Shown piece by piece: positions 1 through 15,048 of a stretch of 15,048 bases of DNA. The stretch is taken from contig NW_021825517.1 in the NCBI RefSeq assembly GCF_006345805.1, positions 1-15,048 of the forward strand. Direction: 5' to 3'. This DNA comes from Octopus sinensis (Eukaryota). The notes under the pieces were generated by a model. It had not been told where the DNA came from. It worked only from the letters and a program-made list of their open reading frames with translations, and searched no databases. Made by a program: the position numbers and the translations under genes. Position 1 is the stretch's first letter. The number at the start of each line of letters is the position of its first letter.

Positions 1-920
1 TCGATGCCAAAGTTTGGACAAGTCCCTCCAGGATCTTCCAGATGTATATTATGGCTATCTTTCTCGCCTACACTCTAAGGAATAGAGTCTTAATCTCTTG
101 AGTCTTTCCCAATAGCTTATATGCTGCACAGAGGCTATCTTCTTTGTGTAGCTTGGTTGGATTGCCTTAAGTTCTGAAATTAATTTGACACTGGTTGGTG
201 ACCATAGCTGAGAGCAATAGTCAAAGTGACTTAGGACAAGTGTCCTCCAGAGGACCATCATGGTTTCCTGGTCTCTTGTTCTAAGAGCTCTAAGAATCCA
301 TCCGGTCAGCCGCCTACATTTCATTGCTAATTTAGCAACATGCACATGAAAGGTTGCATCATTACTAATGTAAATACCCAGGTCTCACACTTATTGTGCC
401 TCTGGGATTGCAATCCCTCCAGGTCCAGTGTATTTATTGGGTATTGCATTTAATTTTGCATGCTGATAGCATAAAGCTTGAAACTTTTCAGCATTGAACT
501 GCATGCTATTCTTTTCAGCCCACTTGTATATTTTGTCCAGCTCACATTGCAGATGCATAGGTTCTTCAGGGTTCTGCATTGCCTGTGAAACTTTTGTATC
601 ATCTGTATAACTTGTGATTGTGGCTCTCTGCGTGGCTGGGGGCATGTCTGAGAGGGCCATTATAAACAGCAGTGGTCCCAAAACTGTGCCCAGCTTCTTC
701 CTGGTCGGAAACCATGTTGGGTGTCAGGCAGCAAGTTATTTTGTTCAAGGAAGGCGATTAGTTTCCTTCTGACTATTTGTTCCATGACCTTGCTGATGTG
801 TGAGGTCAGAGAGATAGGTCTGTAGTTCTTGGCCTCCGCTCTGCTACCTCCTTTATGAAAAGGCATATTTTATCCTCCTTCAGTTTTCTTGGAAGTTTGC
901 CAGTTGCAAGGAAGCTCTGC
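1..920 (-). pseudogene. LINE ORF2 reverse transcriptase and C-terminal domain, fragmented and internally deleted
   Basis: ORFs 660-866, 391-681 and 55-345 carry consecutive RT/thumb motifs. QHGFRPGRS is joined directly to GTVLGPLLF at ~691. Confidence 0.88.
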
Positions 921-2441
921 TATAGCCCTTATTACATCGTCTTCCTTTACATTGATGTAATCAATCATTGCTGCCTCTGATTTTATATCTGCAGTGGTAA
1001 AGAAGTCAGTCGGATTGCTGACTTGAAAGCGCCCTAGGGGTGGAGTGAAAATACTTTTGAATTGCTCATTTAGTATTTCACTTATCCTCATTGGATTTGC
1101 TGTGAGTGTACCATCTTTTTCAAGGAGTGGCCCTATCCTGCAGTGCACTGAAGCTGTTTCTTTGGCAAACTTGTAGAAAGCTCTGGGGTTAGATTTTATA
1201 TTGTCTATAGCCCAGGCTTCTTTGTCTGCTCTTTCTTTTTCATGGGAGATTTGTAGACATTTTTCAATTTCCAGCAGTTTTATTTTCATGCGGGACTTTT
1301 CATTACTTTCAATTTGTTTGTTTAGGCAATTTGAAACTTTTGTACGCCGTCTCATAAGAATTTTCCCCTCATTGGGGATTTTGTTCTTGTGTACAGTGGC
1401 CTTTCTCACTGGGACACATTTGTAGCATATGCCTTGCATTACAGACTTGAATTGTTGAAGTTTCATGTCGATGTCTGGTGAGGAGAGACATTTAGACCGG
1501 CTTTGTATGAGGATCTCTTTCTCAATTTGTTTGCAGTTTGCCTTATGGAAGTTCAAGCTGGAAAGAGTCTGAGAGTTTCTTATAGGCTGCATGTCTATGC
1601 TTTCCTTTGGCCCGTACATGTTGTGATGTTCTACCATGTTGTGATCCGAGAGTAGCGTCAGTGTCACTTTCACATTATGGATGAGATCCATATTATTTGT
1701 GAAGCAGAGATCCAGTATGTTACCTGCCCTAGTTGGTTGTAGTACTATTTGCCTCATGTACAGAGTGTTGATGAGGTTCAGGAGGGACCTCGCCTGTACT
1801 CGTTTGCATCGTATCATTCCTGGGAGAGAAAGGCCCTTGGGCCATCTGATATCGGGCAGATTGAAGTCTCTCATAAGAAGTACACTTATGTGTTGTACTA
1901 ATGTGACAAGAACTTCTGTTTTTGTAAGGCAGTCTTCAAACTTGCCTACATGATTTGGAGCATTTGGAGGGCAATATGTAGCACATATAAGTACACCGAG
2001 TTGCCTTATATGTACAATTAGTGTGTCACACACCGAATTTGAGTATGACAAAAGGACCTGCAGTGTGAGGTCCTCACGGATGAACATAGCAACTCCACCA
2101 TGACTCCTTTCTTTTCTGTCAGTCCGTAATACAACATACTGTGGTATGTGTATTTTCGCATTTGCTATATCTGGTTTCAGGTGTGTTTCCGTAAGTGCTA
2201 TGCATAAGGCTTGATTGCATGCAACAAGGTCTCTCAAGAAAGGGATTTTTGTCCTGTTACTGAGTGTTAGCAGTCTTCTGATGTTCAGTAGGAGCATCGA
2301 GGTGATGTGTGTGTTGTCGCCAGTGGTGTCCACCTTGAGTCTATTTGCTGTGGTGGTCTTGTGTATTGTGGATAGTCCCATCTGTGAGTTTGAGTTTGAT
2401 GGAGCTAGGTTAGCTGCTGTACAATCTTTTGTGCCATGCAC
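870..2441 (-). pseudogene. LINE ORF2 N-terminal part: apurinic-like endonuclease plus linker
   Basis: 523-aa ORF with APE motifs; it shifts frame at an apparent deletion near 920. Confidence 0.9.
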
Positions 2442-2868
2442 AAAAAAGATTCTTGTTCAGCAGCTGCCCTTTCAATAACATGTTGATGGTTTGTAACATG
2501 CACTATATCTGTGTACCTCCGTTTTGGGGCAGGTGGTGCATAGTCCTTTCCTTTTCCTTTTGGCAGGTGGTTTCTGCCCAGTTTCATGTTTATGTGGCGG
2601 GGTCTTTGGTGTGCAAAACAGCAGCCTGCAACTTCCTCTTCATGCCAGCAGACACCTTTCAGGTAGAATTTGCACATTCATGTGTGCTGTCTCTTTCTAT
2701 CCATTTTGGTATATGTATAGTCAGGTCTGCTTTTTTCCTTGGCTGTTTCATCTTTTGTTTTCGTTTTAGTTTTAGTTTTTCCTTCTTTGGCTGTTTCATC
2801 TTTTGTTTTTCTTTTAGTTTTTCCTTCTTTTACTTCTTTCTTGGCTCTCTCATCTCCATCTTTTAGCG
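2405..2868 (-). pseudogene. Probable LINE ORF1 C-terminal fragment with Lys-rich repeats and a CCCH-like zinc finger
   Basis: ORFs 2678-3055 and 2405-2677 are in the same frame, separated by one TGA. Contains CKFYLKGVCWHEEEVAGCCFAH and repeated KTKDETAKE. Confidence 0.6.
2739..2830. repeat. Imperfect ~48-bp tandem duplication within the LINE ORF1 region
   Basis: ttggctgtttcatcttttgttt occurs at ~2739 and ~2787; tttagtttttccttcttt occurs at ~2771 and ~2813. Confidence 0.8.
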
Positions 2869-2871
2869 GGA

Positions 2872-3366
2872 CCACCCCAATCACAAAGGAAAACAAATGA
2901 CAAAGGAACAAAAACTGACACAAACCAAGAAAAACCTTCAAAACCTCAAGACTGGAACAAACTTCTAAACCAACGTAAACATGCTTATTGTAAAAGCATA
3001 CGCTGTAAGAACATAGCCAACATATACCAAAACTGGTGGGACATGAAGAACCCAATACTCCCTAGAAAATTCCTTATCAAAGAAATAAGGGGTGAAACAC
3101 TAGAAGAAACAACAATACGTGTAAATCTAGCCCTTTGCCAACTAGAAACAGAAATTTCCCTTCTACAAACACGAAGCTCACACCAGGAAGATAAGATTAA
3201 AACAATTGATACCGTCGTAATGGCTGAGATAACAGAAAGGAACAATAACCAAAACAAAGAAAAACTACAACAATTATGTAAAGAAGATACCAAACGAGAG
3301 GAGGAAAGATCCGGAATTATGTGGACCAAACAACAGGAATGGTTTTTAAACTACGAAAAGAACTAA
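2872..3366 (+). pseudogene. PLE upstream ORF (ORF1-like, helical/coiled-coil character), followed by a decayed low-complexity region to ~4046
   Basis: The frame is open from ~2872 (..PQDWNKLLNQRKHAYCKSIRCKNIANIYQNWWDMKNPILPRKFLIKEI..) to TAA at 3364-3366. Same strand and base bias as the RT region. Confidence 0.6.
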
Positions 3367-3967
3367 GGGAAAAAATCAATTATGAAGACAAAAAAAACTA
3401 CCAAAACATGAAAAGATACAACAAACCAACATCACAAACATATTGGACTCCCAGACATCCAAATAAGCCCTACCAAACACAAACCCGCTCTTTACACTGC
3501 CGAACCCCCCAATAAACAGACACACAAAATATGAAAGACGACCATCAACCCAAAACCCCACAAAGACAAACACACAAGTAGCAAGACGAGCACAATACAT
3601 ACAAACAACAACAACCTATAACTTGGAGAGAACAAATAGAATATGAAACAACCACCAACACATAACACTGGACATCCTAAATGGACACACACATGGAACA
3701 TTAAACAAGTGGATAGAAATCAACACATAACCTACAACAAACATCGATGAAATCCAAACCACACAAACACCAACCCCATGCAACCCCACAAATTTACAAG
3801 ATGGATAAAAAACAACCCCCACTATCAATACAACACAAACACAAAACATAAACCATCCACCTACCCACAAAGAAACCTGAACTCTAGTAATAGAAATTAC
3901 TACCCCTACTACTACAAGAAAACCTAAGACCTGAAAATGGAATTTGGAGACACAACAGCACAAACGC

Positions 3968-3977
3968 TTTTTTAGGG
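3968..3977 (+). promoter_or_regulatory. Candidate -1 ribosomal frameshift slippery site T TTT TTA GGG
   Basis: X XXY YYZ heptamer at 3968-3974. The zero frame reads NAFLGKG..stop at 4044; the -1 frame is the RT frame (FFRER..IINLS..). Confidence 0.5.
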
Positions 3978-4948
3978 AAAGGATACTTCAACCATACTCC
4001 TGACCCAATACAACAAAAATTCCGAATGTACACACAAAGCACATAGACCCCAAAATAATAAACCTATCTAAAAGAGAACTTAACGAAAATGAAATGAACC
4101 TACTACTAAAAGGCCTCAAATTTACACCTACACCCACTCCAAACCTCATAGAACTAAAAATTGATATAGACAACTTCAGCTGCCACCTCCACCTTATGGA
4201 ATTCTTTGAAAATAAAGAAACAGAAGATAACTCAATCATAAGAAAAAAATCCCATTTCACCCCTTACAAGGGAAGTGCAAAACACCTTGACGCATACATA
4301 AAGACAATATCCAAATTCCCTCTCAACACACACAAAAGCAAACAGAATCTCCACAGAGGAGAAAAACAAGCCTTACAAAAACTAAAAAATGACAAGTCAA
4401 TCATTATAAAAGAAGCTGACAAAGGTGGAGCAATAGTTATTATGGATACAGATTACTACAAAGAAAAGATACTGGAGTTGCTGATAAACCAGACATACTA
4501 TAAAGAGTAACCAACACCACTGGAGAAACAACATTAAAAAAAATTAGAACTTTAGTCAATGAATACCAGGACTCCTTTACAGATAAGGAGAAAGACTATC
4601 TATGCAACTCAAGAACCAAAGCTACTAACTTTTATGGATTGCCTAAAATTCATAAAAGCTCTGAAATACGGAGAGCCATAAAGGAATAGAGGAACCACTA
4701 TATAAGAATACAAAGACCTGCGACCCCAGGCACCAAAACAACAACTAAGCCACTTCATAGATATACTCCTCAAACCTTTATGCCCACAGATATCAAGCTA
4801 CATAAGAGATGACAAAGACTTCCTCACACACATTCCAAGTACAGTTCCGAAAAACACCATACTTGCAAGCTTCGATGTCACAAACCTATACACGAACATA
4901 CCACACACCCTAGGTCTTGAAGCAATAAAACAATCGATAGAAAAATAC

Positions 4949-5545
4949 AGGGAACTCATAAACGAACGTTTCAAGACAGATTTTATCACCCAAGCCACCC
5001 AATTAATACTCGAAGAAAGTACATTCTCATTCAACAACAACACATACCGACAGATAAAGGGAACGGCTATGGGTACAAAATTCGCACCTTCATATGCCAA
5101 CCTGGTGATGGGTTTCCTGGAGAACAAACTATACGATGAAAGAGGGAAAGTCTTCGAACACGACTTCAAAGAAGATATCATGAAAAAGTGAAAACGCTAC
5201 CTCGATGACTGCTTCATCTTTTGGAACAGATCAGAAGAAGACCTATGAACATTTCACAACATCCTCAACACACTGCACCCATCTATCAACTTCACAATAG
5301 ATACTAGCCACAATGATGTCTTCTCTAAAGTCGTGTTTGAAGACTTTCCCTATTTCATTGTATAGTTTGTTCTCCAGGAAACCCATCATCAGGTTGGCAT
5401 ATGAAGGTGCGAATTTTGTACCCATAGCCATGCCCTTTATCTGTCGGTATGTGTTGTTGTTGAATGAGAATGTATTTTCTTCGAGTTTTAATTGGGTGGC
5501 TTGGGTGATAAAGTCTGTCTTGAAACGTTCGCCTATGAGTTCCCT
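4949..5545. repeat. 233-bp inverted repeat (arms 4949-5181 and 5313-5545, 131-bp spacer) inside the PLE RT
   Basis: Manual alignment gives 14 mismatches in 233 bp with no gaps. Also visible as near-identical ORFs 4798-5181(-) and 5313-5678(+). Confidence 0.95.
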
Positions 5546-6516
5546 TCTTAGACATCAACATCAAAATACACAACTCCAGCATCACAACAGACATCCACTA
5601 CAAAAACACCGACACACACCAATATTTAAATTTCCATTCCTGCCACCCATCCCACATAAAAAGAAACATCCCATATAGTATGGCAAGACGAATATGTAGC
5701 ATAGTAACTGACTCACAAACACGACTAATAAGACTAGATGAACTTCCTACTAGAGCAAAAATACCCCCTTAAACTAATAGAAAATGGAATCACAAGTGCA
5801 ATGAAACTAGACATCGCACAACTCAGGACACCCAAAACAAAAAACAAAGAAAACATTATCCCTTTCATAAACAAGCACAACCCTGGAGTTGCCAACATGT
5901 TCCAAATCATACATTCAAACCTGCCAATAATCTTACAAAGCCCCAAAATGGAAAATACACTAAACAAATATTGTATAAAAAACAGTAGACAACAAGACAA
6001 AAACCTAAAGAAACATCTAACAAGATCGAAATTCTCATCAGAAACTAAAACTGAATTCTTTGTAAAAGAGTGCGGAGATGGTAGATGTGGAATCTGCAGC
6101 AACCGTACCTACAAATACGTAGAGGGAGATAAAGAAATGAAATTTAAAAGTGGTCACATATTTAAAGTAAATGCAGATATGAACTGCAAGACACAGAACG
6201 TAATATACTGCATAACCTGCCCCACGTGCAAGGAGGATTACATAGGTGAAATTGGAAACTCTTTGTGCCAACGAGCCAAGATTCACCGATGGGAAGAACT
6301 GCGCAAGATACCACTGAGTAAACACCTAGATACATATGGAGATGGGAAATTTAAGATCTTTCTCTTCTACAAATGTCCAAAGAACAACACCTCCTTCAGG
6401 AGGAATATGGAAAAATATTTCATAACTAAGTTCTCCCCCAAATTGAATGGCTGAAAATATCTCTATAATAAGCTGTACCAGATGAAGGACCAAATTTGTT
6501 AAGTAAACTGTATTAA

Positions 6517-6543
<27 letters not shown>
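6517..6543. repeat. (CA)n microsatellite
   Basis: Direct reading. Confidence 0.97.
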
Positions 6544-6547
<4 letters not shown>

Positions 6548-6874
6548 TCTACACATATGTTTGGGTTTTTGAAAATACAACAATGAACAAAGGATATTCT
6601 AATATTTGAATGAAACCATTTCATTTTAATTTGTGGAACCAGTTGCTCCTGTATGTTAAAACTTAATATTTATTTAACTGTCTATCAGTGAGATATTAGA
6701 CTAAATCAATTAAAGATCAGACAATAGACTCAGTAGTTGCCAGTTTATATTCTGTCATTTGTAACTTCAACACAAGAGAGTCTCTTTTTCAAGTATGGAC
6801 TATATGAAATTTTACTAATCATACATTGAAGGACAAATCTTTCAGTTTACAATTTAACATAGTGGAGCATTTAG

Positions 6875-6900
<26 letters not shown>
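6875..6900. repeat. (TA)n microsatellite, left flank of PLE 2
   Basis: Direct reading. Confidence 0.97.
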
Positions 6901-6905
<5 letters not shown>

Positions 6906-7027
6906 GAAAAGAGTGAAAAAACTACAGAAGGCTTGTTTTAAAAGGTTAAAGAATATATTTAAGTCGTTATGTTAGAAAAATGTTACAAAATTTTGTGTAG
7001 AGTAACATAGTTTTTTGAGAAATAACC
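6900..7027 (-). repeat. Left inverted terminal repeat of PLE 2 (partner 8496-8623)
   Basis: 128 bp, 4 mismatches by manual alignment. Confidence 0.93.
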
Positions 7028-7058
7028 GGTTTCATGTAAACTTTTCAAATTTCTCAAA
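7014..7058 (-). ncRNA. Minimal type I hammerhead ribozyme fold with U3-A8 core variant
   Basis: Minus strand: TTTGAGAAAT-TTGAAAA-GT(TTAC)AT-GAAAC-CG-GTT-ATTTCTCAAA. Perfect 10-bp helix I and palindromic AACCGGTT helix III. Confidence 0.68.
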
Positions 7059-7119
7059 TGTCTTTACCTACATCGTGTCATGTCTTGGTTATGAAGTGCA
7101 AAAGAAGAGTTCCAGGTAG

Positions 7120-8395
7120 GGAACTAGAGGCAATACAGTTCTGGCTGGACCAATTTCCGGAAGAAATACCAAAAAGGATCAGTAAAAAATTCATTACTAA
7201 ATCGGTTGAGTTCATCCTACAAAATAACCACTTCATGTTTGACAATACGTTTTACTGTCAAAAATCCGGAATTGCTATGGGTACAAGGGCAGCACCAGTC
7301 ATTGCGAACCTAACAATGGGCTACCTGGAAATAATTATATACCAGGAATCTTTATCGACCTTTGGAAACCCCCTTTCTCAATACCTAAAAGAGAATTGGA
7401 AAAGATTCCTGGACGACTGTTTTATACTCTGGAATGAAAACACAGATAAACTCCAAAAATTCAAAAACCTATTGAACAGCATCAACCCAAATATACAGTT
7501 CACAATGGACTACAACCAAAAGGAGCTTCCATTCTTAGATATACTGATTTAAAAAATTAACCTAAAAACAGAAACAGGCATATTTTACAAAGCCACAGAC
7601 GCCAAACAATACCCAAGACACGCTAAAACAAACATCCCTTTCAACCTTGCAAGAAGGATATGCACAATAGTGTCAGAACAAAATACCAGGAACTTTAGAC
7701 TACAAGAACTCAAAAACACCCTAATTGACAGACACTACCCAGTTCAACTCATAGAGGATGGGATCAGACGTGCAAACAGAAATCGACATAGAAACTTTGA
7801 GAAAAGTTCAACACAACAACATGCCTTCCCCGAAAATATTGCCTTACATATCCACATACAACCCCAGAAACAAAGAAGCCTTCACTATCATCATCCAGAA
7901 TTTACCAATACTTCATAAGGACCCCAAGTTAAAGGAAATTCTAAACATAGATAAAATCATTAAAAGTTACAAACAACCTAAATCACTTAAAAAGATTCTC
8001 ACAAAGGCAAAACTGTTTTCTGAAATTACGGATGCAAAAGTAAAAAAATGTGGTAGACCAAACTGCGCAACATGCCCAAACCTTCTAGAAGGATCAGAAT
8101 TCCTTTTCAAAGAGGGACAAAAATTGAAGATCAGATCTAATTTTACTTGTGCTTCTGAAAACATAATTTATGTCATAAAATGCTCGGGCTGCCAACAAAA
8201 CTACGTAGGGTCCATGGGATTATCACTCAGACACAGATGCACTCTGCATCGACAACAGATTGCATTCCCGCGCAAAGCAACTACTACCACAATTTTTAAT
8301 CTTTTCATTCTATCAATGTGCTATTGGAACACCAACACAAATTAGATTAAACAAGAAAACATTCTTCATTGAAAAATATAAGCCTGAACTTAACC
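7120..8395 (+). pseudogene. PLE 2 RT core, thumb and GIY-YIG endonuclease, frameshifted with small deletions
   Basis: ORFs 7058-7552, 7670-7918 and 7758-8345 together give the consecutive domains, ending ..EKYKPELN. Confidence 0.88.
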
Positions 8396-8495
8396 ATCCT
8401 AACATTCTTATACAGAGAAACTCATCTCATTAAAAAAGGGGAAAAGAAATATAAAGCGATTATCTCCCTTATACCGGAAGAAATCCGTTATATCT

Positions 8496-8623
8496 GGTTA
8501 TTTCTCCAAAAACTATGTTACTCTACACAAAATTTTATAACATTTTTCTAACATAACGACTTAAATATATTCTTTAACCTTATAAAACAAGCCTTCTGTA
8601 GTTTTTTCAATCTTTTCTATTTT
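8496..8623 (+). repeat. Right terminal repeat of PLE 2, followed by a ~42-nt unpaired extension (8624-8665)
   Basis: Reverse complement of 6900-7027. Confidence 0.93.
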
Positions 8624-8663
8624 TTATACATCCAACAACGTGCTTTCACACACAACTTTCTCA

Positions 8664-8665
<2 letters not shown>

Positions 8666-8723
<58 letters not shown>
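8666..8723. repeat. (TA)n microsatellite, right flank of PLE 2
   Basis: Direct reading. Confidence 0.97.
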
Positions 8724-8729
<6 letters not shown>

Positions 8730-9432
8730 TAAATATCAACACAATTATTTCCCCTTCCTTTTTTTTCTTCTTCTTTCTTCCCTTCACCAAACTCACATAC
8801 ACACACACGCGCACACATACACATACACACCTTCACTAAACAATAATAAAAAGAATTCTTCTTCTCTAAACCCAAAAACCATTTGACCATCCCTCATTAA
8901 ACACACACACTCTCACAATAATAAAAAGGAAATATAATTTATGGTCTACCTCCCCGCCACCACACACTCAATAACACAATGAAATGGTCAAAAGTGAAAT
9001 TATTTTTCCCCAAGATCTTAGACACCTCTTGAAGTAAGCATCCTGTCCAGCAGAGCGAAAAAATATTACTTCTTCGTCCCTCTTCATTCCCCTCTTTTTA
9101 TTTAGCACTCTTTCAAATACAAAAACACACACACACATGCTCCCTCTCTCTCTCTCTCACTTTCTCCTCATCCATCACCCTCTTGTACTGTCTTCCCCAC
9201 AACTACAAACTCAATAACACTATAAAATGGTCAAAACTTTTCACACACGAACGGAGTTCAATTTGAAAACCCCATTAGAATGGGAGAAAGCACTAATACA
9301 TGATCTAAGTTATATGATGTATAAAAACATGTAATATACAAATAAATATCTGTAAATATAAAACCATCCGAATTTCTGAGTACCTCATTTCTTCTAATAT
9401 AAAATACCTGTACATCATCTCCAAACCTTCCA

Positions 9433-9585
9433 ATATATATATATATATGCATATATATATATATCTTTATATATATATATATATATATATCTTTATATAT
9501 ATATATATATTTTAGAAATATTGAATTTCTAATGTCTCAGAGAGACATAAGCGGTGGTGGAGCGATATAGTTGACAGTATATGAC

Positions 9586-9635
<50 letters not shown>
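9433..9635. repeat. Two (TA)n arrays (9433-9510, 9589-9635) enclosing a short unique island
   Basis: Direct reading. Confidence 0.92.
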
Positions 9636-9637
<2 letters not shown>

Positions 9638-10856
9638 TCATCATCATCATCGTTTAGCGTCCGCTTTCCATGCTAGCATGGGTTGGACGGTTCAACTGGG
9701 GTCTGGGAAGCCAAAAGGCTGCACCGGCCCAGTCTAATCTGGCAATGTTTCTACGGTTGGATGCCCTTCCTAACGCTAACCACTCCATGAGTGTAGTGGG
9801 TGCTTTTTACGGGCCACCAGCACAAGACCAGTTGGGGCGGCGCTGGCAATGGCCACATTCGGATGGTTCTCTTACGTACCACCGGCACTGGTATCACAAA
9901 TTCCATTGATGTTGATCGATTTCGATTTTCACTTGCCTCAACAGGTCTTCACAAGTAGAGTTTTGTGTCCCAAGATGGAAAGGTATGCATAAGTTGACTG
10001 GCTACATCCCATGTAGAGGCCATGGGTTATGGTCTCACTTGTCCTGCCGGGTCTTCTCACGCACAGCATACTTCCAAAGGTCTTGGTCTCTAGTCATTTA
10101 CTCGGTGAGACCTAAAGTTCAAAGGTCGTACTTCACCACCTCGTCCCAGGTTTTCCTGTGTCTGCCTCTTCCACAGGTTCCCTCAACCGCTAAGGTGTGG
10201 CACTTTTTCACACAACTATCTTCAGCCATTCTCGCCACATGACCATACCAGCGCAAACGTCTCTCTTGCAAACCACAACTGATGCTTCTTAGGTCCAGCT
10301 TTCCTCTCAAGGTACTTATACTCTGTCGAGTATGAACACTGACTTTACACATCCATCGGAGCATACTGGCTTCATTTCTTGCGAGCTTACGCATATCCTC
10401 AGCAGTCACGGCCCATGTTTCACTGCTATGTAGCATGGCTGTTTGTACACATGCGTCATACAGTCTGCCTTTTACTCTGAGCGAGAGGCCTTTTGTCACC
10501 AGCAGAGGTAAGAGCTCTCTGGACTTTGCCCAAGCTATTCTTACTCTAGCAGTTGCGCTTTCAGCACACCCGCCCCCGCTACTGACTTGGTCACCTAGGT
10601 AACTGAAGCTATCAACTATTTCTAGTTTTTCTCCCTGGAATGTGGCAAGGTTGGTCTCTGCGTATTTTCAGTGTTTATTGCTCCTGAGCATCTGCCACAT
10701 ACAAAAATTATCTTCCTAGTTAGCCTTCCTTTGACATTGCTGCACCTCTTATGTGTCCATAGCTTACACTTGGTGCATCTTATAGAGTTTCTACCTACAC
10801 CTTTTCTACAGATCGAGCAGGGCCATTTACCTGAAGGCGTTTGTGATTTGTCTACC
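9636..10856 (-). mobile_element. 5'-truncated RTE-type LINE with (GAT)n 3' tail
   Basis: Minus-strand peptides ..VDSFSYLGD..ARVRIAWAK..LYDACVQTAMLHSSETW..RRLRWYGHVAR..GRGRHRKTW, typical of the RTE C-terminus. 3' UTR with plus-strand ggatgcccttcc motif; (cat)n at 9636-9651. Confidence 0.88.
10035..10856 (-). pseudogene. RTE ORF C-terminal part including a PHD-like Cys/His finger
   Basis: ORF 10622-10900 (WPCSIC..SIRCTKCKLWTHKRC..FVCGRC) and ORF 10119-10499; the frame continues through premature stops to TGA at 10035-10037. Confidence 0.82.
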
Positions 10857-10922
10857 CATATTTTTCCCAAACTTCTCAAACCTGCTATAATGTAATACAT
10901 GTCTTTGGTGTGGTAATTGTGC

Positions 10923-11009
10923 GCGGCTGAAGAAAGCTATTGACATACATGTTACATCAATTATGCATTGATATAAACTTTCCAATAAAGCCAGAAACAT
11001 ATGTACCGC
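10923..11009 (+). ncRNA. Type I hammerhead ribozyme fold with intact core and long stem II insertion
   Basis: GCGG-CTGAAGA-(60 nt)-GAAAC-ATAT-GTA-CCGC. Helix I GCGG/CCGC, palindromic ACATATGT helix III, GUA triplet with predicted cleavage after 11005. Confidence 0.72.
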
Positions 11010-11084
11010 TAAATCCTTTACATCCTGTTTTTCTTTTGATAAATATACCCTATCACCTACACCACTAACTGGCATATGGCAAAT

Positions 11085-11130
11085 GGCGGTGCCCCAGCAT
11101 GGCCACAGCTCATAAGCTGAAACTAGAATC
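11085..11130 (+). mobile_element. Isolated CR1-like LINE/SINE 3' tail
   Basis: ggcggtgccccagcatggccacagctcataagctgaaac matches the LINE end at 12123-12160 and the SINE end at 13290-13327(-). Confidence 0.8.
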
Positions 11131-11175
11131 AATCATATACAGTGTTTACAGTTATCAAGTAATCACCCTGAATTT

Positions 11176-11217
11176 TATATATATTATAATATATATATAT
11201 ATATATATACTATATAT

Positions 11218-11267
<50 letters not shown>

Positions 11268-11290
11268 TATATATATATGCATATATATAT
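11176..11290. repeat. Imperfect (TA)n microsatellite
   Basis: Direct reading. Confidence 0.95.
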
Positions 11291-11596
11291 GGATATTTAA
11301 CCCTACAGTCTCTTATGTGGTCGTTTAATAAAGTATGTGATTGAGTATTATCTGGTAATTGATATTTGATTTAGATGTATTTCTCCATTTTCTTATCTTG
11401 TATTAGTAATTTGTGTTAAATCATTTTACCTTTGCCCATATAATACAGTAAATGAATTAATTGCATTGCAATCATTAACATTTATGTATTAATTTTGTTG
11501 GGTACTTCACTAGCAGTATATTGGATATATGTTATCCCATGGAGGGTTGCATTTACAACCCCTATCTCAATTTGTATATATATATATATATATATA

Positions 11597-12172
11597 GTTC
11601 ACAGCTATGGTCACCCACCAGTGTGAAATTAACAGCGGACCTTGAAGCAATCCAGAGAAGATTCACAAAGAAGATCGTCTCTTTGCAACAGCTCAGCTAC
11701 TGGGAAAGGTTGAAACAGCTAAGACTCTACTCCCTGGAGAGAAGACGGGAGAGGTATGCAGTAATATATGTCTGGAAGATCCTGGAAGGAATTGTGCCAA
11801 ATTTTGGCACTGTAAGCAACGGGACGACACTGCATAGTGCCAAAGATCCAAGCAATGCCATCACGCTTCAGGACCAGCTACTGCAACAGCCTGGGTTTCA
11901 ATGGACCACAGATTTTTAATATTCTCCCAAAGAGTCTGAGGAACTTGCACAAAGTAAATGTAGCGGTTTTCAAATCAAAGCTGGACAGTTTCCTGTTGAG
12001 AGTCCCAGATGAACCTACCTCACGGTAAGAGGTACAAATGAGGGTAGATATATCAAACTCCATTCTTCACCAAGTGCCACATATTAGAGGAGACTCTTAG
12101 TAATAACAGTGTAGCACAAAACGGCGGTGCAATAGCATGGCCACAGCTCTGAGCTGAAACACGAAAAACGAA
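11597..12172 (+). mobile_element. 3' fragment of a CR1-group LINE (related to 1-2868) including 3' UTR and terminus
   Basis: SQLWSPTSVKL..LSYWERLKQLRLYSLERRRERY..GPQIFNILPKSLRN..FKSKLDSFL..VPDEP, homologous to ORF 55-345(-). Ends in the conserved tail. Confidence 0.92.
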
Positions 12173-12175
12173 TGT

Positions 12176-12681
12176 TTATATATATATACAGTTATATATA
12201 TATATTTATATATATGTTTAAATATATATATATATACATGTTTATATATATATATATATAAAGTTATACATATATATTTATATATATGTTTATATATATA
12301 TACACACACACATATATATATATACACACATTATATATATATACATACATACATTATATATATATATACATATATATATATATACATTATATATATATAT
12401 GTATTTATACATTGTAATATATATATATGTATTATACATTATATATATATATGTATATATATATATGTATATATATGATATAAATATATATGTATATATA
12501 TATGTGTGTATATATATTATATATATGTATATAAATATATATGTATATAGATATGTGTGTAATATATATGTGTATATATATATATGTGTATTATATATAT
12601 GTGTATATATATATGTGTTATATATATATATTTATCTATATATATAATATATATATTATTGTATATATATCATAATATATG

Positions 12682-12721
<40 letters not shown>

Positions 12722-12798
12722 TTGTGTATATATATATATATATGCATATATGTGTGTATATCTATATATGTATGTATATCTATATATACATATATGTA

Positions 12799-12829
<31 letters not shown>

Positions 12830-13054
12830 TTGTATATATATATTATATATATATATAATCGATATGTGTATATATATACATATATGTATATATAATATAC
12901 ATATATGTATGTGTAGATATCTATATATATACATATAATATATACTATATATATGTGTATATATATATATACATATAGATGTGTATATATATATATATAC
13001 ATATATATATGTGTATATATATACATATATGTATATATATATATACTATATGTA

Positions 13055-13090
<36 letters not shown>

Positions 13091-13269
13091 CATAATATAT
13101 GTGTATATATATATACATATATATGTGTATATATATATATATACATATATTGTGTATATATATATATATACATATATATGTGTATATATATATATATATA
13201 CATATTTATATATGTATATATATATATATATATACATATTTATATAGTATATATATATATTATGTATAT
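12176..13269. repeat. ~1.1-kb degenerate (TA)n/(TATG)n low-complexity array
   Basis: Direct reading. Confidence 0.97.
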
Positions 13270-13271
13270 CT

Positions 13272-13635
13272 CTCTTTACTCTTTTACTTGTTTCAGTAAT
13301 TTGACTGCGGCCATGCGGAGCACCACCTTTTATTACTTATTCTATCGGTCTCTTTTTGCCGAACCGCTAAGTGACGGAGACCTAAACCACACCAGCATCG
13401 GTTGTCAAGCAATGCTAGGGGGACAAACACAGACCACACAAACACACACACATACCATATATATACATATATACGACAGGCTTCTTTCAGTTTCCGTCTA
13501 CCAAATCCACTCACAAGGCATTGGTCGGCCCGGGGCTATAGCAGAAGACACTTGCCCAAGATGTCACGCAGTGGGACTGAACCGCAACCGTGTGGTTGGT
13601 TAGCAAGCTACTTACCACACAGCCACTCCTGCGCC
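13272..13635 (-). mobile_element. tRNA-derived SINE (resembles octopus-type SINEs) with internal microsatellite and LINE-derived 3' tail
   Basis: Minus strand begins GGCGCAGGAG-TGGCTGTGTGG (A box, 13615-13625) .. GGTTCAGTCCC (B box, 13573-13583). Ends GGTGGTGCTCCGCATGGCCGCAGTCAAATTACTGAAAC followed by short gtaaaaga repeats. Confidence 0.88.
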
Positions 13636-13749
13636 TATATATATATATATATATGTATATGTATATATATGTAATTATGTATATATATATATATGTATAT
13701 GTATATATATATATGTATATATATATGTATATGGGGTATATATATAATG

Positions 13750-13837
<88 letters not shown>

Positions 13838-13838
13838 A

Positions 13839-13880
<42 letters not shown>

Positions 13881-13974
13881 ATATATATATATATATATGT
13901 AATATATATATGTATATATATATATATATGTATCATATATATTATGTATATATATATATATATATATATATGTA

Positions 13975-14006
<32 letters not shown>

Positions 14007-14048
14007 GTATATATATATTATATATATGTATATATATATATATATATA
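13636..14048. repeat. Degenerate (TA)n array
   Basis: Direct reading. Confidence 0.97.
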
Positions 14049-14050
14049 AC

Positions 14051-14452
14051 ATAATAAATCTCTGAGCGAGATATAGACAGTAACTGCTCTATAACATAAG
14101 GGGGATCAGCCATCTGAATGTGGCTAGGGACAGGCGGGGTGGTGGGTGTGTTACTGATGCATTTAGCCCCAGGCGATCCATCAACGTCACCAGAAGGGCT
14201 GACACCATCTCGGTGTCCTTGCCAGCCTGCAAAGGGAGATCAGCCTCCCCGAGATACGGATACTACATACAGACCGGTTTCGAGGTTATTGCCTCTTGTC
14301 ACGCATGGCAAGTACCGTTCTTCGTTGAGGGACTTCCTCTACAGGCTGGATATATAGGGATTTTCACAGTAACCACAGTCCACTGGCGTAGAAAATCCGT
14401 TCGAAAACAATAATAAATCTCTGAGGCGAGATATAGACAGTAACTGCTCTAT
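14051..14452 (-). mobile_element. Candidate non-LTR retrozyme: ~360-nt non-coding structured unit with 42-bp terminal direct repeat and internal hammerhead
   Basis: Direct repeats 14051-14092 and 14410-14452 (one 1-nt indel, period 359-360). Multiple stems; hammerhead fold at 14256-14318; no recognisable protein. Confidence 0.72.
14256..14318 (-). ncRNA. Extended type I hammerhead ribozyme, core apparently mutated in this copy
   Basis: Minus strand: ACGGTACT-TGC-CATGCG-TGACAA-GAGG(CAATAA)CCTC-GAAAC-CG-GTC-TGTATG-T-AGTATCCGT. GUC triplet; predicted cleavage between 14272 and 14271. Confidence 0.78.
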
Positions 14453-15048
14453 TTTCCATAATGTTAATGTGATGCCGCCGACAATGATCTCGGATCACAC
14501 ATAATAGAGCTGTCTATGTATGGAACAAAAGCCCCCGTAGACACACAGCCTATACGAAGCACCCCCACTCTCCAACTTAAACTTTCATAAAGCCAACTGG
14601 AAGTTGATTGAGAAAGAGATCCTCAAACAGGATTGGCCTGAATGTCTCTCCACACCGGACATAAACATGAAACCAAACACTTCATGTCCATAATACAAGC
14701 CATATGTGACAAATATGTCCCAGTGTGCAGGGCCAGTACACACAAGAACAAAAAGAGGATCCTAGAGAAAGGAGGATTCTTATGAGACGACGGGCAAAAT
14801 TGCAACCGCCTGAGCAGCACACCAGAAGTGGTGAGAAGTCTCGGCTCGAAAGAATGCTAATGGAAACTGAGAAAAGTCTACATCCCATGAAAAGGAGAGA
14901 GCAGATAAAGAAGCTTGGGTAATATAAAATATAAAATCAAACCTAAAGCTTTCTTTCAGTTTGCCAAAGAGACAGCCACAGTGCACCAGAGAATAGGACC
15001 TCTCTTCCAAAAATGGCTCTCTCACAGGAAATCTCACGAGGATAAGTG
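14453..15048 (+). mobile_element. Internal fragment of a CR1-group LINE (end of APE and linker), runs off the window end
   Basis: Homologous to ~1070-1680(-): ..ISDH..LNFHKANWKLIEKEIL..ERRILMRRRAK..NIKSNLKAFFQFAKETATVH..IGPL; many frameshifts. Confidence 0.88.

Follow-up and report, generated by a model that had tools for sequence, protein, structure and literature searches.

Positions 14051-14452 of a 15,048-nt stretch of Octopus sinensis DNA (NCBI RefSeq assembly GCF_006345805.1, contig NW_021825517.1, positions 1 to 15,048; hereafter the window) had been noted in a preliminary description as a hammerhead-containing unit between direct repeats, and had been proposed to be a retrozyme with a circular RNA intermediate. 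The locus raises the question of what kind of element this is, what moved it, and whether a copy of slightly more than one unit reveals the form of the RNA that was copied. Our analysis indicates that it is probably a decayed copy of a multi-copy, non-coding hammerhead family of retrozyme type, copied by a Penelope-like element (PLE) into AT-rich DNA from a fixed internal start. The features discussed below are the following.

13636-14048, no strand: (TA)n tract, adjoining the sense 3' end and the likely insertion target
14051-14409, minus strand: non-coding monomer, delimited by the repeat period, the contigs of four runs and its fold
14051-14092, minus strand: first copy of the repeat (42 bp), at which the insertion has its sense 3' end; the family as a whole ends at about 14047-14051
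14051-14087, minus strand: 37-nt terminal segment, common to a diverged subfamily
14088-14108, minus strand: hypervariable segment
14201-14217, no strand: 6-bp hairpin, exact complement, with loop variants at 14207 and 14210
14222-14349, minus strand: predicted rod with the hammerhead at its tip
14266-14307, minus strand: type I hammerhead of canonical animal geometry, core without nucleotide 3; in relatives one more base is present at 14300/14301 and 14271 is different
14358-14398, no strand: 8-bp stem, exact complement
14410-14452, minus strand: second copy of the repeat (43 bp), where a second unit begins and is cut off at the LINE
14450-15048, plus strand: decayed APE-RT LINE fragment, starting within the endonuclease domain and running off the window

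The repeated unit

Alignment of the two direct repeats (14051-14092 and 14410-14452) showed 42 of 43 positions to be identical, with one inserted base and a period of 359 nt. The 42/43-bp repeats that had been reported at a distance of 359-360 nt are therefore real, and the element at this locus amounts to 1.12 units, a 359-nt unit and part of a second. The strand bearing the hammerhead (minus) is taken as the sense of the monomer. The unit had also been called more GC-rich; at 49.9% GC it exceeds the flanking LINE (43.3%) and the TA tract (6.7%), but does not stand out above positions 13275-13635 (48.2%), a stretch between TA tracts that we take to be SINE-like.

The longest Met-started frames of the unit comprise 79 aa on the plus and 39 aa on the minus strand. 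Indels that break the reading frame are found at intermediate share in related sequences (4 nt at 14176; 1 nt at 14132 and at 14178; 2 nt at 14220) and argue against a coding role, in agreement with the non-coding character first ascribed to the unit. The unit also contains a short internal direct repeat (14098-14111 and 14232-14245, 13 of 14 nt identical).

Hammerhead motif of the window copy

Read along the minus strand from 14307 to 14266, the motif consists of a helix I of 6 bp, a helix II of 4 bp with a 6-nt loop, the GAAA and the GUC triplet, and a helix III of 2 bp with a palindromic 2-nt loop. Cleavage is predicted between 14272 and 14271. A9 directly precedes G10.1, without an additional base between them. 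Unconstrained folding yields helices I and II with pair probabilities of 0.78-1.0, and there helix I leads into an internal loop and a further stem.

Searches of the window with strict descriptors (C3-G8 or U3-A8) revealed no match, and Rfam detected no hammerhead in the window or the unit. A descriptor without position 3 matched the window once. None of the three descriptors matched any of 5,000 shuffles, so the layout is beyond chance. The type I minus-strand hammerhead of the preliminary description is confirmed in its layout and helices, but its core is incomplete. In the anole PLE ribozyme, exchange of C3 for G was reported to abolish cleavage (PMC11167929), and because nucleotide 3 is missing here the window copy is probably inactive, a decayed fossil with a broken ribozyme core.

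Weak Rfam matches to queA, mir-488, sR55 and PVT1 (E 1.2-5.4) were dismissed as chance; the queA match (14059-14127, plus strand, E 5.4) rests on a 13-nt identity. A 16-nt hammerhead pattern occurred at 119 metagenome loci, none of which contained a hammerhead core, and the best of them (L074) lies inside a bacterial-type sensor-kinase-like frame and was rejected. A 23-nt piece of the repeat had no locus in metagenome and viral contigs.

Predicted folding of the unit

The minus strand folds better than its shuffles, both as a linear (z -3.06) and as a circularised molecule (z -3.24), the latter being the fold that the preliminary description had suggested as a check. The plus strand also beats its shuffles, less strongly (z -2.28 linear, -2.34 circular). 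The three stems named earlier (14201-14217, 14222-14229 with 14342-14349, and 14358-14398) are exact complements at these positions. In the circular fold the pair 14222/14349 closes the predicted rod. The stem at 14358-14398 forms in the plus-strand fold and is absent from the minus-strand fold. An extension of the rod by G-U pairs on the minus strand only, as described before, holds for 14230/14341 and 14232/14339, but 14236/14335 is a G-U pair on the plus strand only.

Pairing was examined for 39 unit variants, which are the 40 of 49 substitution rows listed, minus one in the LINE. At paired places of the rod, all five listed variants keep the pair, every change being one-sided. Outside the rod 8 of the 15 listed variants disrupt predicted pairs, so that we regard the global fold as tentative.

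Related contigs reveal a multi-copy family

Contigs from 4 of 24 runs (X2, X3, X5 and X6) were aligned to positions 14046-14560 at 80% likeness. Fitting contigs numbered 683 and 1,173 in two DNA-like runs and 40 and 67 in the others, most of them less than 99% alike; these counts cover the unit together with 108 nt of LINE, and contigs yield no copy number. The numbers in the two DNA-like runs support the multi-copy family that had been proposed. None of the runs is on record as RNA, and since the X5 and X6 contigs also cover the LINE flank they say nothing on expression.

At core position 3, a U, which pairs with A8, accounts for all of the depth in X5 (13.1 of 13.1) and for 58.6 of 82.7 in X6. 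In the DNA-like runs its share is 1,874 of 10,535 in X2 and 1,077 of 22,073 in X3. A C, possibly paired with G8, was found at this position in X2 (675 of 11,627) and X6 (9.9 of 82.7). The extra core base at 14300 reaches only 5-18% of depth in X2 and X3, which may reflect short contigs ending there or many broken copies. As judged from these contigs, the core is complete in relatives, mostly as U3-A8, and nucleotide 3 has been lost in the window copy.

At 14271, none of the depth in any of the four runs agrees with the window, and the change converts the first pair of helix I from G-U into G-C. Each of the hammerhead variants listed affects a loop or the free position 7, or else leaves its pair intact. 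Substitutions accumulate elsewhere: 13 of the 40 listed rows fall at 14090-14107.

Family end and junctions

Before 14051, 39 contigs of X2, 9 of X5 and 4 of X6 enter sequence that agrees poorly (0.50, 0.52 and 0.68, respectively). The contigs thus point to an end near 14051 that the family shares, with flanks that differ among copies; the opposite end of the unit itself may account for some of these flanks. This end lies 221 nt from the predicted cut, in line with the earlier statement that the genomic copy is permuted relative to the cleavage site.

At the other side, diverged contigs cross the border between unit and repeat (X2 record 7, X5 record 23 and X6 record 32), and a loose end in X3 lies at 14422, beyond the unit-repeat junction. 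The X2 contig leaves at 14421 into 770 unlike letters, an overrun of about 12 nt at another locus. Since this passage from unit to repeat is seen in other copies, the repeat belongs to the element. Two near-identical copies flanking a unit would also be expected of a locus-specific target-site duplication, which the preliminary description had named as an alternative to be checked. That reading is highly improbable here: the segment lies in the deepest-covered part of the family, diverged copies show it connected with the unit at either end, and it contains no LINE sequence.

A single X5 contig joins 14409 to 14051 and extends 71 letters beyond, a length that exceeds the repeat; it is the sole such joint and seen in one of the four runs. 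It fits a dimer or a circle, but 1.1-mers and assembly words of 31 letters may also suffice, since the 42-bp repeat exceeds these words and an assembler can produce the joint from 1.1-mers. In X6, one contig connects 14219 with 14051 and so could represent a 169-nt unit that lacks the hammerhead; it has 39 letters on the far side. A multi-copy X2 contig (depth 292) switches strand at 14107/14237, between the copies of the internal direct repeat; this may be an inverted insertion of the PLE type.

Within the first repeat copy, 54, 56, 4 and 6 contigs of the four runs fit as far as 14087, beyond which they share a diverged sequence. Aligned without gaps and by eye to 14088-14117, this continuation agrees at 14 of 30 positions (p 0.016, binomial). 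Ten of the 16 differences are transitions, and 7 of the 16 are the same as listed family substitutions. A piece of the continuation was absent from the window. We considered an unrelated second family or the end of a helper element and rejected both, since the continuation is colinear with the unit and more plausibly represents a diverged subfamily. It follows that the last 37 nt are common to the subfamilies and the next 20 hypervariable. The 37-nt segment may be where the reverse transcriptase starts or the signal that it recognises.

Summed depth at 14064-14189 is 8-11 times that at 14262-14405 in all four runs. Such a gradient is what 5' truncation would give and suggests it, although divergence could contribute and depth does not equal copy number.

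Comparison with known retrozymes and PLEs

The retrozymes of Mytilus galloprovincialis have units of 350-390 bp and have been shown to form circles (Cervera and de la Pena 2020, PMC7229834). The octopus unit resembles such metazoan non-LTR retrozymes as described there, the mussel elements being closest in size: it is a 359-nt non-coding unit with one canonical type I hammerhead, occurs in many copies without LTR features, and shares its genome with PLEs. PLEs make up 6.83% of the O. vulgaris assembly (PMC13282606, supplement). Unlike the mussel retrozymes in that account, the octopus family has a U3-A8 core in most complete relatives, and copies that are dispersed and truncated are suggested by its common end and its graded depth. 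The GC content of 49.9% lies above the value of less than 45% given for animal retrozymes (legend of Fig. 1C in PMC7229834), which is a typical trait and not a strict one. The mussel hammerheads are described as lacking most loop 1-loop 2 contacts (PMC7229834). A plant LTR retrozyme has a type III hammerhead in each 300-400-bp LTR and a 4-bp target duplication, in contrast to the one type I hammerhead here, which lies outside the 42-bp repeats.

Other features recall PLEs. These elements are reported to form partial tandems with an optional 30-40-bp tail and to prefer (TA)n (PMC8557442), and the octopus element likewise has a terminal repeat on the 30-40-bp scale, a (TA)n neighbour and a fixed end away from the cleavage site (PMC8557442; PMC11167929). 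Its palindromic, minimal helix III is like that of the hammerheads in PLE pseudo-LTRs, and U3-A8 is a natural core variant described in Schistosoma PLE hammerheads (PMC4209133). PLE minimal hammerheads, however, have an extra base after A9, a long helix II and a short helix I; the unit has no such base, a helix II of 4 bp and a helix I of 6 bp. It also differs from a PLE in having no reading frame.

For vertebrates it has been argued that retrozymes of the non-LTR type derive from PLEs and lack autonomy (Li, Clavereau and Pollet 2026, bioRxiv 10.64898/2026.07.22.740005). As in the octopus family, the monomers in that study are common and dispersed, and dependence on PLEs is proposed. Its 35 species include no mollusc in the main text, where insertion ends are not discussed. 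Taken by its sequence features, the octopus family is likely a non-LTR retrozyme, of the kind that mussels, corals and amphibians are known to carry.

Alternative explanations for the element and its length

The tail of 30-40 bp, the pseudo-LTR hammerheads and the (TA)n preference of PLE insertions (PMC8557442; PMC11167929), together with the reported relatedness of Xenopus retrozymes and pseudo-LTRs (bioRxiv 2026.07.22.740005), would also suit a unit that is what 5' truncation has left of a coding PLE, its pseudo-LTR and tail. We consider this unlikely. In a coding PLE the tail corresponds to the beginning of the body and is confined to one end, whereas here the repeat flanks the unit on either side and no frame lies in between; the same unit-to-repeat junction is seen in other copies, and the hammerhead geometry is canonical rather than PLE-minimal. 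No RT/GIY-YIG frame joined to the unit was detected in the window or among the 24 of 189 loose ends listed, none of which leads into common coding-like sequence. A similarly low probability is given to a SINE-like family moved by LINEs instead of PLEs. LINE machinery would equally account for a fixed 3' end with 5' truncation, LINEs have been named as candidate helpers of retrozymes (PMC7229834), and several LINE fragments lie in the window. Against this, the unit has no tRNA head, matches no LINE piece in the window and shows no A-rich or repeated tail at its sense 3' end, and the element overruns its own junction.

The length of the copy has more than one explanation within a retrozyme family. 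The preliminary description had held that a 1.1-mer implies a circular intermediate; this does not follow, because PLEs make partial tandems from linear multimeric RNA and because the LINE may have cut an array. In the latter case, which we regard as possible but doubtful, a dimer or longer array was interrupted by LINE insertion or deletion 43 nt into its second unit. The LINE begins at the repeat end, inside its endonuclease domain and with a 3-nt overlap (its contigs join at 14450-14455), and its 5' part was not found upstream within the window. Further, no loose ends cluster at 14092 or 14452 among the 24 of 189 listed, so that a 42-nt overrun is not evidently family-wide. The overrun of about 12 nt in X2, which ends in unlike DNA, indicates on the other hand that short overruns arise without this LINE, and a PLE inserted in a LINE with a microhomology junction and no target duplication has been described (PMC3846280). 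An array cut by the LINE would change the meaning of the repeat, not the identity of the element.

A stronger competitor, though still short of an even chance, is a linear multimeric or read-through template, with no circular RNA and with the hammerhead as a passenger in mobilisation. In vitro, the anole PLE is reported to nick AT-rich DNA and to start its cDNA at fixed internal sites downstream of the hammerhead; partial tandems arise from linear multimeric RNA through internal initiation, and cleavage is dispensable (PMC11167929). According to the same report, insertion was as good with hammerhead mutants as with the wild type, the RNA used was mainly unprocessed, and the cleavage site was not the end point of any read. 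The family end 221 nt from the cleavage site and the X6 contig with a 169-nt unit without the hammerhead point in this direction too. A passenger role is at odds with relatives that keep a complete core and with the loop, position 7 or pair-keeping place of the listed hammerhead variants, and similar-sized units of mussel, coral and axolotl are reported to yield abundant circles (PMC7229834). In Xenopus, by comparison, 8 of 9 predicted retrozyme dimers remained uncleaved in vitro (bioRxiv 2026.07.22.740005). For the octopus family we put the odds of a circular RNA at about even.

A retrozyme-type family copied by a PLE from a fixed start remains the explanation that we favour, and its course can be proposed as follows. 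The minus strand would be transcribed through copies of more than one unit. The hammerheads would act as dimers because helix III is minimal, and would cut out 359-nt monomers, which may be ligated into circles. Nicking of (TA)n DNA by a PLE protein would be followed by reverse transcription from the conserved 37-nt end, about 221 nt downstream of the cleavage site, over a length that varies from copy to copy. In many cases it would end early, and the window copy would consist of one unit and at least 42 nt more, giving the direct repeat. A circle could serve as the template, as proposed for PLEs and retrozymes, and a linear multimer equally so. In this scheme transcription, cleavage, ligation and PLE dependence are all inferred; the scheme would account for a fixed start near 14051, a variable length and an overrun of the junction that leaves the direct repeat.

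Significance of the family

A literature search on octopus and cephalopod hammerheads, PLEs and repeats, with most subscription papers outside its scope, found no description of a cephalopod retrozyme, which is consistent with the earlier suggestion of a possibly undescribed family. The giant squid genome paper gives a count of 235 Rfam hammerhead-1 matches and does not analyse them (PMC6962438). In the text and supplement of a 2026 repeat annotation of O. vulgaris the words 'retrozyme' and 'ribozyme' do not occur (PMC13282606), and its library may carry the family under another label; Repbase and Dfam may contain it too. We would advance only tentatively the full claim of a first cephalopod retrozyme with a U3-A8 hammerhead, circular RNAs of about 360 nt and dispersed, 5'-truncated insertions that start from a 37-nt signal 221 nt from the cleavage site.

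Animal retrozymes give rise to some of the most abundant small circular RNAs known, but which helper moves them and how they insert are still matters of inference. With its common end, its short conserved terminal segment and its variable overruns, a large family of this kind is well suited to mapping the start of copying. If the full claim is true, the 37-nt signal would be what the PLE reverse transcriptase recognises and would name the helper element, and it would become directly testable which element mobilises animal retrozymes and what form of RNA is copied. What is valuable here is the family rather than the locus, since the window copy is probably an inactive fossil and the class is established.

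Other elements in the window

The LINE fragment at the right flank shows 72.5% identity over 611 nt to a LINE at 1681-1079 (Pfam PF14529, E 1.3e-9). For that other LINE, the best protein match is from Octopus sinensis (53%, E 5.6e-129) and the next named match from a crustacean (32%), in keeping with an octopus host.

A decayed PLE was found at 3990-6520 on the plus strand, with an RT (E 3e-5) and a GIY-YIG match (E 0.0095) below Pfam cut-offs and a CX4CX2C linker as in Neptune, Nematis and Naiad. It contains an internal inverted duplication (4949-5181 versus 5545-5313, 94%), and a decayed hammerhead-like stretch at about 6478-6510 directly follows its stop codon. A second decayed PLE (6875-8736) is flanked by (TA)n tracts and has an inverted terminal copy (6892-7027 versus 8496-8631, 95.6%); a homologue search with this PLE gave 4 matches. 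Both PLEs have only a short hammerhead stem in common with the unit. In a stretch beside the inverted copy of the second PLE, the palindromic helix III letters are the same as in the hammerhead of the unit. Decayed RT-like frames lie on the minus strand at 10119-11132, the part at 10119-10667 without a Pfam match at E 0.01; by their appearance, these frames are presumably a further LINE.
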